Shown here: in pieces, positions 19,715-25,978 of the stretch
Position numbering within the stretch: position 1 is the first letter of the stretch
How the letters are laid out: every line of letters begins with the position of its first letter
Assembly (NCBI GenBank): GCA_010093705.1
Contig: MU006091.1
Coordinates: 930,001 to 994,000, forward strand
Length of the DNA stretch: 64,000 nucleotides
Direction: 5' to 3'
Source of the DNA: Patellaria atrata CBS 101060
Lineage: Eukaryota
Translations under genes and position numbers: made by a program
The notes under the pieces: generated by a model
Told to the model about the DNA's origin: nothing
Database searches by the model: none
What the model saw: only the letters and a program-made list of their open reading frames with translations

Positions 19715-20960
19715 ATGGATCCATCCAATCTCCAAAGCGCCGGTGGGCAAAAGCTTCGCCAGCAACAACAGCAGCAAGGGCCGCGTCGTTATGATGGTCT
19801 AAATGGAAACCCGCTATATGACCCAGCGAATGGAGGTCATTACGGTACGTTTGCTCATGAGTGCACAAGCAGCGCCACGTGCGCGCCAGCTTCGAGATCA
19901 AATGATACTGACTTCTTCGCGTCTCGCAGGTGCCAGCGCTCATGTATGTTCATCCTACTATTGGACCATGTTGACCTATTTTGGTGGATAAAACCGTTCG
20001 AAGAGCCCACACTGATCTATTTGGTCCAGATAGCCGCGCAGGGGCATGCGCCAAATCCAGAGGTCTTCACCGGCCAATGGTCTAATGTAATGCGTCATGT
20101 TGATCTATAGCATTTGGCCGTACTGACACCCTTTAGGTGAACCAAGGCCTTCAGGGCAACTACCGCGACATACTCAACACTTATTGGCAGCAACAAGTCA
20201 CGAAGCTCGAAACAGATGAACATGACTACAAGATACACCAACTCCCCCTTGCGCGCATAAAGAAAGTGATGAAGGCAGACCCTGAAGTCAAAATGATATC
20301 AGCGGAAGCACCTATACTATTTGCTAAGGGCTGCGATATCTTCATCACGGAGCTCACCATGCGTGCATGGATTCATGCAGAGGAGAACAAACGCAGGACG
20401 TTGCAGCGCTCAGATATAGCCTCTGCGTTGGGCAAATCTGATATGTTCGACTTTCTGATCGATATTGTACCCCGCGAAGAAGCTGCTGGTCATGGCGGAC
20501 ACAAGCCTCGTGGTCAAGGTAACGCAGTCACGCAACCTGCCGCAAGCTCATCTGCTGTTCCTCCCCAAGCTGTGCAGCAGCAGGCAGGTGTCCATCCTCC
20601 TCCGCATCAAATGGGACCCCCCGAGTATGCGATGAATCAGCATATGCCGGAGCAAGCATATCGTGAAGCGAGTATGTACGCGCCGCAAGTCCCACAGGAT
20701 CATCAGGTCCCGTATCCAGGACAACCACAGATGTTTGATCAGGGCATGTATGGTGGATACGGCATGCCCCCGCAGCCTGTCAGTATAACTACTTTCCTGA
20801 ATATTTTCCAATGGTTTTCACTAACAGGTTGCAGATGTATCAAGTGAGCCAACGAGGACCAGATCCGAACGCGGGAGAGGCAGGTCACGGTTATAGGCCC
20901 CATGGGGATGCTGAGGGAGACGTTGATGCCGAGGGCGAGCGCGAAGATTTCGGCTCATAG
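19715..20960 (+). CDS. HAP5: CCAAT-binding complex subunit HapE/Hap5 (NF-YC histone fold)
   Basis: [62 protein letters not shown]; five exons including a 14-nt micro-exon at 19930-19943; stop TAG ends at 20960. Confidence 0.93.
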
Positions 20961-21841: not shown

Positions 21842-23201
21842 ATGAAAGCGGGTGGGGTAGCTCATCACTCATAACGGACTTCTGGGCTGACGCTATGAAC
21901 AGTCGTTGCTGGTGCGTCCGGTGGCATTGGGCAGGTAAGATCTTCTACTCGTGAACCATGGCCTTTACTATGCTAACCGTATTTCTAGCCATTGTCCCTA
22001 CTGCTGAAGACCTGCCCCCTCATTGAGGAGCTCGCGCTTTTCGACGTTGTCAACACTCCGGGTGTGGCTGCTGACCTTTCGCATATCTCCTCTCCTGCTG
22101 TACGTCTCCAAGTCCCCCAAGATATTGGATAGAAGATAGAAAACTAAGACAGGAGTAGAAAATTACAGGCTATCTCCCCGCTGACGATGGTATGAAGAAG
22201 GCGTTCTCCGGCGCTGACATTATCGTCATCCCAGCCGGAATTCCTCGTAAGATCCTTCCCGTCAATAAAATTGTCCACCTCTAACATAAGAATAGGCAAG
22301 CCTGGAATGACCCGTGATGATCTCTTCAAGATTAATGCTGGCATTGTCCGAGATCTTGTTCAAGGAATTGCCGAGAACGCCCCCAAGGCATATATTCTTA
22401 TAATTTCTAACCCTGTTAACTCTACCGTACCGATTGCCGCTGAGGTCCTCAAGAACGCCGGCGTTTTCGATCCCAAGAAACTTTTCGGTGTCACAACTCT
22501 TGACGTCGTTCGTGCGGAGACGTTTGTCGCCAGCATCACCGGCGCAAAGAATCCCCAAGAAACCGTCATTCCCGTTATCGGTGGTCATTCAGGGGAGACT
22601 ATTGTGCCCCTTTTCAGCCAGGCGAAACCCAGCGTATCAATCCCATCCGACAAGCTTGATGCCTTAGTCAAACGTATGTAAACGATTCGTGTTGTTGTTT
22701 TAGTTCTAACTGTATCTTAGGTGTGCAATTTGGTGGTGACGAGGTCGTTGAGGCCAAGCAAGGTGCAGGATCTGCTACCCTTTCTATGGCATATGCAGGT
22801 TACCGGTACATTCACAATCCCCTGAGTATAATCGCAATCTCTAATAGATTACAGCTTCGCAGAGAAGGTTATCAAAGCAGTAAAGGGCGAGACTGGCATT
22901 GTTGAGCCCAGCTTTGTCTATCTTCCCGGTGTTGAAGGTGGTGATGAGATCGCCAAGGCTACTGGAGTCGATTTCTTCTCCGTTCCTATCGAACTGGGTG
23001 TATGTTGTTCTATCACAAAAACTTACTTTTTTTTTTTTTGAACATTGCTGATTTTCATAGACCGAGGGTGTCAAGAGGGCCATCAATGTCGTAGGTGATG
23101 CTAACGACCATGAGAAGAAGCTTCTCCAAGTTTGCTACGATGGCTTGAAGGGTAATGTCTCGAAGGGTATTGATTTCATCAAGAACCCTCCTCAGAAGTA
23201 G
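21842..23201 (+). CDS. MDH: NAD-dependent malate dehydrogenase, cytosolic/peroxisomal type (no mitochondrial presequence)
   Basis: Spliced [84 protein letters not shown]; ends ...KNPPQK*. Confidence 0.95.
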
Positions 23202-23686
23202 GTCATCCTTAATCATGGTATCTGTGTTTATAGTGGTATGGTTTCAGATGACGCTGACGTTGAGAAGATAGATTATGATTGCTTCAGCAAGTGCTCAATA
23301 AATCGAGGTACTGTTGAGTCAGCAAGTCTAGGAGATATCATGCAAAATACTACCGTAGGCTATGTAGTAGTCTAACGTAAAAAGCCACCTAGACAAATAC
23401 CTATTATTAAATCAAATGTAAAACTGGTACCGAATCCTACATTGAGTGTTGCCCATTTGATATCTCCATTGCGCATATTCTCCGATTTCCGCTCTAAATG
23501 CATTCATATGAGCCCAGAATTGAAGCTATACACCCGTAAACGCCACGCTAATGCCTCATTCATCCATCCATTGAAACCTAAGGTAACCCATCCCTTTCCA
23601 TCACTACCTTAGATACTCCCTCCTAACTCCAAGTCAGCACAACACTAAACCCTCCTCCCTTCCCTCCACTCCCTCGCCCTCCCCAA

Positions 23687-24670
23687 CTAAGTTTTCGCAC
23701 CCACAGTCCTAATCTGAAACGTCGCACCCGGCAGCGCGCTTGTCTCACCCTGCACGGTGGCATTGATCCCCATGGACGCAAGCGCGCCGCGGATCAGACC
23801 GGCGGGGAAATAGAGAAATGGTTGCGCGCGGCTCAGGCTTAAGTTGGAGGCGTCGGATTTGGACAGCGACATCCGCGTTAAGGGCTTGAAGGTGTTGTCG
23901 GTTAGGACGTAGATGCCCTGAGGAAGGGGGGGAGGGTGTTAGATTTGGGGGTAAGAGGGGGAAGAGGGAGTTGGGGGGAATGGGGGTTAAAGGGATGGAG
24001 ATTTGGGGAGAAAAGAACGTACCCGATGGTTCGTTTTCAGATTGTCGATTTGCTTTCTGAATACTAAGGTCCAGAGGTCTTTGCAGAGGAACTTTATCAC
24101 GTCGAGGGAGTCGGTGAAGCGGGGTTTGTCGCGGGAGAATCTGGGGAAGATCGGGTTAGATTTATGACTCTGATCGCAGTTACACTCGATATGCCCCGGT
24201 CCCGCTGGAGTAGTGTCGAATCCTCCCGTTATGTAACCATCTTTCATCTTATACCCCATAGCCTCCAGCCCTCGGATACGCCCAGAGTAGAGGGGGGAAG
24301 AATACAAAAATAAAACATACCTCTCCACCACCCCCAAACCAACCCGATACCCCAGCATCTCCAGTCTATAAAACGCAGTCTCCCGCGCCTCTTCTTCGTC
24401 CAAGTTACTCATCACGCTCCCTGTTCCTCCTCCTCCCATATTTCCCCCCTCTCTACCCTCTTTTCCTACTATACCCTCTCCTCCCCCTTCATTCCCTCCC
24501 ATCCCAGAACCGCCCCTCCCCCTCGCCCACTCCTCCTCCCGCGCCGCCAGCTCCTCCGCCATCCGGAACGCCATGGGCACGAGCTCGATGAGGAGGAAGT
24601 CGAGGCAGGCGGCGTTAAGGTAGGTGCTGTTTGGATCGCTGAGGGTGGGGAACGTTGGATCATGGGACAT
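23687..24670 (-). CDS. TRS33: TRAPP complex subunit Trs33 (TRAPPC6, Bet3 family)
   Basis: LDFLLIELVP...LEMLGYRVGLGVVERFSRDKPRFTDSLDVIKFLCKDLWTLVFRKQIDNLKTNHRGIYVLTDN...FPAGLIRGALASMG; introns at 24141-24320 and about 23918-24022. Confidence 0.92.
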
Positions 24671-25978
24671 TATTGTTTATTTTTATTTTTTTCCCTTTCT
24701 TTCTTTCTCGTTGGTTTGTGCTATTTCTGGTTCTGGTCCTAGTCCTGTTTCTGTTTCTGCTGCTTTGCTTGGTCGGTCTTGGGGAGTTATGTGGGGTGTT
24801 GAAGTCGGGATTTGTGCGGTCAATGGAGGGGAGTTGGCGGGGGTTGGAATTGGTGGGTTAGGTACACGTTGGGTTTTGGGGGGGGGGTGGTTTTCGTGGT
24901 AGGCGTGAATTTGAGGTTGTGGAAATTTTTGTATTGCGGGTTTGTGGTTTTCTGGTGTTTGGGATGGGAATATTTGGAGCTCTCGAAGGTAGTCTAAGGT
25001 AAGGTTGAAGTACATTATCTAGTCTACTAGATTATTTGGGTTCGGCTGAGTAACGTCACACTCCGCTTAAGTCACGTTGAAAAAAAAAAATTTTATAATC
25101 TAGCATATCTCATTATAGTTTCCTACGATAAGAGGTTTTGGCTAGTCTACTGTAAATTCAATTGCAGACATACTGTAGGAGGGAGTATATTCCTTAACTA
25201 ATGCGTCGAGGGATTTGTAGCGAACAATATCAGAATCACGGCCAAACAAATAAGAATTAACTCAGTGAATTTTCTACGTATGATATCACTTTCCACATAC
25301 ACCATGCGTCCAGTCAATCGACTACGAGAATGAAATACCCATCGGATGTTCAAACTTATCACTACAAGTACTGCGCCGAACCAAACCAGGTTGTAAATGC
25401 AAAGTCAAGAGAAGACAAGGGGTACCGCAATACCGATTCGAAGGATCAAAGGTATAGCAAATGTGACTCGCTAATACGTCGAGCACAAGATATAAAATTT
25501 GAAGGGTCAAAGGAAAGGAAAGGCTGCCCGCTCGCGGCGCCGCATGTATGAGATCCGTTGCTTTTATGGATTTGGATCGGGGAGTCGATACGGGAAATTG
25601 GTGATGTGTGTGTATCGTGATATTAATGTCCCAGGCTCCGAGTCGAGTAAGAGCTGAGTTTGTGCGGAGATGTAGTCTTATTTTCGTTGACGATGTTCGT
25701 GAATCGATAGCTTAAGAACCGGAAAAGGCAAGGAAAGGCCCCTTGTAACGCCTGTGTTTGTTGTGGAGTCAGGTGTTTAACTGACAAATCCGACCTGACT
25801 GGAAGAGTGGATTGCTGAACCTCCAAAAGATCTACAAAAGTCCCCTAACTGACGCCTCGATGAACCGATGTGATAATGACTTATTTTCCTCAGGAAAGTT
25901 AGGGCAGGCTATGTGAAAGGAAGTTGGGTATAAGAATTACGCGGCCGTTTTCGTAGTGTCATCTTTGATCGGTTCACA

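Follow-up and report, generated by a model that had tools for sequence, protein, structure and literature searches.

Our analysis suggests that a single malate dehydrogenase (MDH) gene of Patellaria atrata supplies both a cytosolic and a peroxisomal enzyme through splicing of an optional intron at the very end of its coding sequence, a reading to which we give a probability of about 0.82. Most messages would retain this terminal intron, or be spliced to a proximal AAG acceptor, and yield a 329-aa enzyme that ends in PPQK and stays in the cytosol. Some messages would instead use a TAG four bases further on, with a shift of frame that lets AA+A TTA TGA add one Leu; the resulting 330-aa enzyme, ending in QKL, would bind the PTS1 receptor Pex5, enter peroxisomes and reoxidise there the NADH generated by beta-oxidation, regenerating NAD+. 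Among spliced messages, the weakness of the proximal AAG may favour the distal site. The parts of this proposal differ in strength: use of the 23197^23272 junction in P. atrata is highly probable, peroxisomal import driven by QKL is probable, and a redox role for the peroxisomal enzyme is reasonably likely. The anatomy of the intron, its predicted products and their conservation are read directly from DNA, and the three mRNAs and the two locations are proposed by analogy with Aspergillus fumigatus and Yarrowia lipolytica, respectively. Taken as a whole, the terminal-intron layout is real and conserved, and very probably functional.

The gene occupies positions 21842..23201 (+) of the window, the 64,000-nt stretch of DNA that was analysed, and consists of eight exons encoding 329 aa with the C-terminus ...NPPQK*. 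The eight-exon model, from the ATG at 21842 to the TAG ending at 23201, contains no internal stops and its translation equals the database protein P0001, in which the Pfam domains Ldh_1_N and Ldh_1_C are found; among named sequences, the best matches to its largest exon, at 82-90% identity, are for the most part malate dehydrogenases of Dothideomycetes. Its seven ordinary introns (21852-21902, 21935-21988, 22100-22158, 22247-22295, 22674-22720, 22806-22854 and 23000-23060, all +) measure 47-61 nt and have their branch A 9-12 nt before the intron end. The first of them follows just 10 coding bases and has an unusual donor, GTGGGG (21852-21857). Exon-by-exon searches of the P. atrata genome, whose counts are lower bounds, found one other MDH locus (G000:C12), which by our reading appears to start with a basic stretch resembling a mitochondrial presequence. 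Unlike this paralog, the window MDH has no presequence before its first conserved strand, and we class it as non-mitochondrial because the sole other MDH locus found has the presequence-like start. The same searches, again as lower bounds, found no dedicated peroxisomal MDH paralog. Upstream on the same strand lies a CBF/NF-Y histone-fold gene (20137-20847, +), and a TRAPP subunit gene (23687-24676, -) converges on the MDH 3' end. Two database records, P0051 and P0117, each hold histone-fold and MDH domains together, a hint that gene models were fused and that the order of the genes is conserved.

The last annotated exon (23061..23201, +) closes with AAG for Lys and the stop codon TAG (23199-23201), codons 23181-23201 reading AAG AAC CCT CCT CAG AAG TAG. 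The wobble base of this Lys codon, the stop and two more bases spell a candidate 5' splice donor, GTAGGT (23198..23203, +; AA|GTAGGT), and no second donor-like site of the scanned pattern occurs within 23150-23300. From here the optional terminal intron (23198..23271, +) would extend over 74 nt to the distal acceptor or 70 nt to the proximal one. Its putative branch site, GCTGAC (23253..23258, +; branch A at 23257), is identical to that of intron 1, and behind it lie the two acceptors, 4 nt apart: the proximal AAG (23265..23267, +), 10 nt past the branch A, and the distal TAG (23269..23271, +), 14 nt past it. When the sequence was spliced in silico, removal of 23198-23271 gave NPPQKL*, since the seven-base coding end A TTA TGA (23272..23278, +) finishes the Lys codon, adds Leu and stops, and the proximal AAG gave NPPQK*, one residue fewer and the same protein as is made upon retention. 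A possible polyadenylation signal, AATAAA (23297..23302, +), would be common to all isoforms. The donor at 23198, the branch site at 23253-23258 and the AG ends at 23264, 23267 and 23271 proposed in the initial annotation were thus all re-found, and its assignment of ...NPPQKL* to the 74-nt splice and of ...NPPQK* to retention or the AAG acceptor agrees with our in-silico translation. With the same donor, the third acceptor of that proposal, GAG (23262-23264), would give NPPQKR*. A further acceptor that it had overlooked, TTTCAG (23242-23247), would define a 50-nt intron and again NPPQK*; branch consensus is absent nearby. Stop-codon readthrough in a UGA-CU context was reportedly described as a source of such isoforms by Stiebler in 2014. 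We rejected readthrough as a route to a PTS1 here, the stop context being TAG GTC rather than TGA CT and the extended frame ending ...GYVVV*.

The donor is by itself no evidence, because AAG is the usual Lys codon and AAG followed by any stop spells GTRR. Among the matches listed, a GTR donor stands at the same position in 71 of 89 distinct relatives, as expected from codon use alone. AAG accounts for 71/73 terminal Lys codons versus 309/338 elsewhere in these relatives (Fisher p=0.14, among the matches listed), and on this basis we rejected a terminal AAG bias as an indication that the donor is under selection. The mitochondrial-type MDH (G000:C12, L118:991-2320) ends ...NPPK* with AAG TAA GG, a similar donor-like overlap, and no acceptor within 400 nt of it yields KL*; with this overlap present beside no KL* exon, the donor alone was discarded as an argument. 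Within the window, counting both strands, 8 of the 84 AAG-stop sites have a bare AG-R-Leu-stop 40-280 nt downstream, the MDH site included, and one locus is therefore insufficient as proof. Addition of a tandem AG-N-TAG acceptor leaves a single site among the 84, that of MDH. It is the relatives that supply the case.

We collected relatives with a degenerate pattern that stops before the last codons, and is hence blind to both donor and KL* exon, obtaining at least 114 metagenome loci. With L014 dropped (no MDH match), the remaining 113 loci gave, once 24 duplicates were removed, 89 distinct ends among the matches listed: AAG-stop in 71, KL* in 3, K-TAG-R-xxx-stop in 6, other AAA-stop in 2 and no K in 7. 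For the exon count we kept the 63 of 71 AAG-stop loci with a flank of at least 285 nt; the exon is visible in three of the eight short-flank loci left out. An AG-R-Leu-stop within 40-280 nt of the donor was found in 57/63 unspliced relatives among the matches listed, at actual distances of 56-270 nt, compared with a mean of 2.35 and a maximum of 7 in 300 dinucleotide shuffles, a count that shows breadth rather than independent events since the loci share ancestry and include close or near-identical strains. A tandem acceptor 4 nt upstream accompanies the exon in 45/57 (shuffles: mean 0.017, maximum 1), the proximal site being TAG in 22, CAG in 18 and AAG in 5 (YAG = 40), and the distal acceptor is TAG in 54/57, all among the matches listed. 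Within the same listed matches, a branch-like motif is present in 47 of the 57 relatives with the exon, and conservation extends to columns outside the selection (T at -3 in 57/60, A at -6 in 51/60, G at -5 in 50/60). The alignment of 3' ends that the initial annotation had called for therefore bears it out, and conservation in relatives, as judged from their sequences, raises the layout far above chance. In 32/47 unspliced relatives (L004-L117, among the matches listed), 19-23 nt separate the nearest branch-like motif from the end of the distal acceptor, as against 14 nt in the window and 9-12 nt in the ordinary introns of the P. atrata gene; the longer distance could favour retention.

It would be a different matter if the intron were kept for regulation at the mRNA level, through stability or polyadenylation at the 3' end, with the added Leu as a by-product. 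The protein is indeed identical for two or three of the possible splices, and locus L037 seems to keep an intron-like stretch although its K codon is a stop. We nevertheless consider this explanation very improbable: a 3' UTR intron needs no R-Leu-stop past its distal acceptor, and yet that exon is what most of the listed relatives share, and the Yarrowia isoforms differ in location (passages of PMC3372373). L037 is one of seven loci among the matches listed that lack the terminal K (L020, L027, L028, L034, L037, L094 and L115; ends PPA*, PPS* or PPQ*), in none of which did a donor-acceptor pair near the stop give a PTS1-like end. At the position of its K codon it has TAG, followed by the stretch GTAC...GCTGAC...CAG, suggesting that the intron may outlive the signal. 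Six of the 63 loci (L016, L023, L066, L078, L083 and L107, among the matches listed) have no KL* exon and, together with the 7/89 that lack the terminal K, indicate that some lineages can do without the isoform.

The terminal intron could also be vestigial in P. atrata, its signals still recognisable but the intron always retained, so that only cytosolic protein is made. At 74 nt it exceeds the other introns of the gene (47-61 nt), and retention gives the major form in A. fumigatus (passages of PMC7491326). Against this, every element from the donor and the branch site to the two acceptors and the Leu-stop is preserved and fits the family pattern; in lineages that lost the output the decay is visible, for instance in a missing K codon or Leu-stop. 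There is little chance that the intron is a relic here.

Splicing at both acceptors, as proposed for P. atrata, seems to be caught in the act in relatives. Nine contigs among the matches listed appear to be already spliced, three at the distal acceptor (L006 and L043, ending QKL*, and L108, ending PKL*) and six at the proximal junction (L015, L018, L039, L049, L053 and L089), with L049 set to yield KF instead of KL. Past its stop, the 3' end of L039 is 90-94% identical to six intron-bearing loci over 156-157 nt, and in 5/6 of these the match begins at the ATAG behind the proximal acceptor (acceptor position given or identical). L043, which still contains one upstream intron, looks like a message whose splicing was incomplete. 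These short contigs, which come without library information, are likely, though not proven, to be of transcript origin, because intron-poor genomic copies also occur among the loci; a precise loss of the terminal intron would itself imply the junction. Two sequencing runs that had been guessed to be RNA have the introns in place and zero joints at any intron; both are probably DNA, and consequently bear neither for nor against splicing.

Protein annotations tell the same story from the other side. From 120 homologous proteins, 8 were set aside for want of an intact MDH end; among the 112 counted, 87 stop at K, where xKL would need one residue more, 3 end in KL or RL and 22 have other ends. The expectation that standard annotation would miss the KL form is borne out by these 87 and by P0001. 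Public annotations of Phyllosticta hold both forms, P0128 being P0123 plus L and P0118 being P0121 plus L. Two further Phyllosticta proteins, P0125 and P0130, end in PPTN beside P0124 and P0127 (PPTK, PPTKL), an end that resembles the proximal P-A-N of Yarrowia. Most of the 22 other ends belong to proteins that lack the last K and finish in PPA*, PPS* or PPQ* (P0002, P0055, P0132-P0134, P0147 and P0148); among the K-less MDH proteins are records whose sources name them Venturia, Bipolaris and Ampelomyces. In a Delitschia MDH record, P0003, the C-terminus is extended and reads ...GPKYVPAPQHRL, again a PTS1-like tail and perhaps the product of a different splice.

The import of a QKL protein is the weakest link of the mechanism. 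The intron could be spliced in P. atrata with QKL too weak a signal there, the longer isoform staying largely in the cytosol and the architecture being a legacy of ancestors whose proteins ended in AKL or SKL. QKL is absent both from the PTS1 pattern given in the available part of PMC4207609 and from the consensus quoted in that of PMC12316961; the latter also states that the strength of non-canonical signals is decided by upstream residues. In the 57 relatives with the exon (among the matches listed), the predicted ends are AKL in 23, QKL in 16, PKL in 14, TKL in 2 and SKL in 2, so that PKL and QKL together make up 30/57. The same figures can be turned around, since ends confined to these five tripeptides, with QKL in 16/57 and a KL* exon that is intact in QKL lineages, argue against an inert signal. 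The initial annotation had given QKL as the C-terminus of the peroxisomal protein Lpx1; the peroxisomal QKL end stands for the yeast protein Yor084p, which we take to be Lpx1, this equation of names being our assumption. Yor084p is a peroxisomal matrix protein with the C-terminus QKL (passages of PMC2173120), and the C-terminus of Lpx1 contains a PTS1 (passages of PMC4680570). We therefore regard an ineffective QKL as unlikely. The available text of PMC2448379 contains no occurrence of QKL, and a 12-letter pattern ending in QKL-stop gave 10 matches in the P. atrata genome versus 6 for the control, numbers that are uninterpretable without gene models.

The dual-location reading corrects the annotation of P0001 and of the 87 homologues like it, whose sequences break off a single residue before a peroxisomal signal would be complete, so that metabolic models of such fungi would have no MDH in the peroxisome. 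With it, an ancient splicing event already in print is extended to many further filamentous ascomycetes, and QKL becomes a signal worth testing in filamentous fungi. We propose tentatively, as a generalisation that we hold at less than even odds, that the switch is near-universal in filamentous ascomycetes, well past the single species for which we found a published study, and works as a tunable dial, with the strength of the proximal acceptor (a weak AAG in P. atrata, YAG in most relatives) and that of the signal (QKL or PKL as against AKL or SKL) setting the peroxisomal share, and that K-less lineages (PPA*/PPS*/PPQ*) lost this dial, apparently more than once, and need another peroxisomal route to NAD+. 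If that were true, QKL would be a common filamentous-fungal PTS1 missed by current patterns. In yeast, NAD+ for beta-oxidation is regenerated by Mdh3 (passages of PMC9549241). Beyond Hurtig et al. (2020), a search mostly of journals outside subscription found no test or localisation of the KL isoform in a filamentous ascomycete, and the available portion of PMC3764329 makes no mention of MDH splicing.

A minor isoform of a cytosolic dehydrogenase that is altered at its C-terminus and carries a hidden PTS1, as proposed here, has counterparts in fungal GAPDH and PGK with their cryptic PTS1 (Freitag et al., 2012, as cited in passages of PMC3798809 and PMC9549241) and in animal MDH1x (passages of PMC4207609); GAPDH and PGK are other genes, and MDH1x is made by readthrough, a different mechanism. 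Closer is MDH2 of Yarrowia lipolytica, for which Kabran et al. (2012; passages of PMC3372373) describe alternative 3' splicing that produces a cytosolic and a peroxisomal enzyme, in agreement with the precedent invoked by the initial annotation. As in P. atrata, the acceptors of its last intron are 4 nt apart, and its ends P-A-N and A-K-I fit, from the text of the papers, a donor placed directly behind the second base of that same codon. Unlike in P. atrata, both of its acceptors are UAG, its signal is AKI and its proximal form ends in Asn rather than Lys, and retention has been lost according to Hurtig et al. (passages of PMC7491326). Yarrowia strains restricted to one isoform showed normal growth on the carbon sources that were tried (PMC3372373, section 3.3), which, together with the lineages that have lost the output, speaks against a vital role. 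In Lipomyces starkeyi MDH, retention gives the cytosolic form and splicing the PTS1, as predicted here, but the proximal acceptor that P. atrata possesses has been lost (Hurtig et al., 2020; passages of PMC7491326). The nearest likeness is to A. fumigatus MDH, for which RNA-seq in the same study, in the part available, revealed three isoforms, the annotated one retaining the last intron; there, splicing to a proximal AAG exchanges no more than the wobble base and the stop, and splicing to the distal acceptor, a UAG 4 nt beyond, appends one residue and a putative PTS1. The event behind this terminal intron is dated there to more than 590 million years ago. By that description the P. atrata layout is the same point for point, in a fungus of another class (its top named matches being Dothideomycetes) that is known from sequence where A. 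fumigatus has RNA-seq. The hidden routing switch claimed for this locus thus stands as a switch, on the layout conserved in listed relatives, both junctions in spliced-looking contigs and the A. fumigatus RNA-seq precedent, and falls as a novelty, the event being published and ancient. The mechanism is not new: P. atrata MDH is an unannotated case of the switch already described in A. fumigatus, Lipomyces and Yarrowia.
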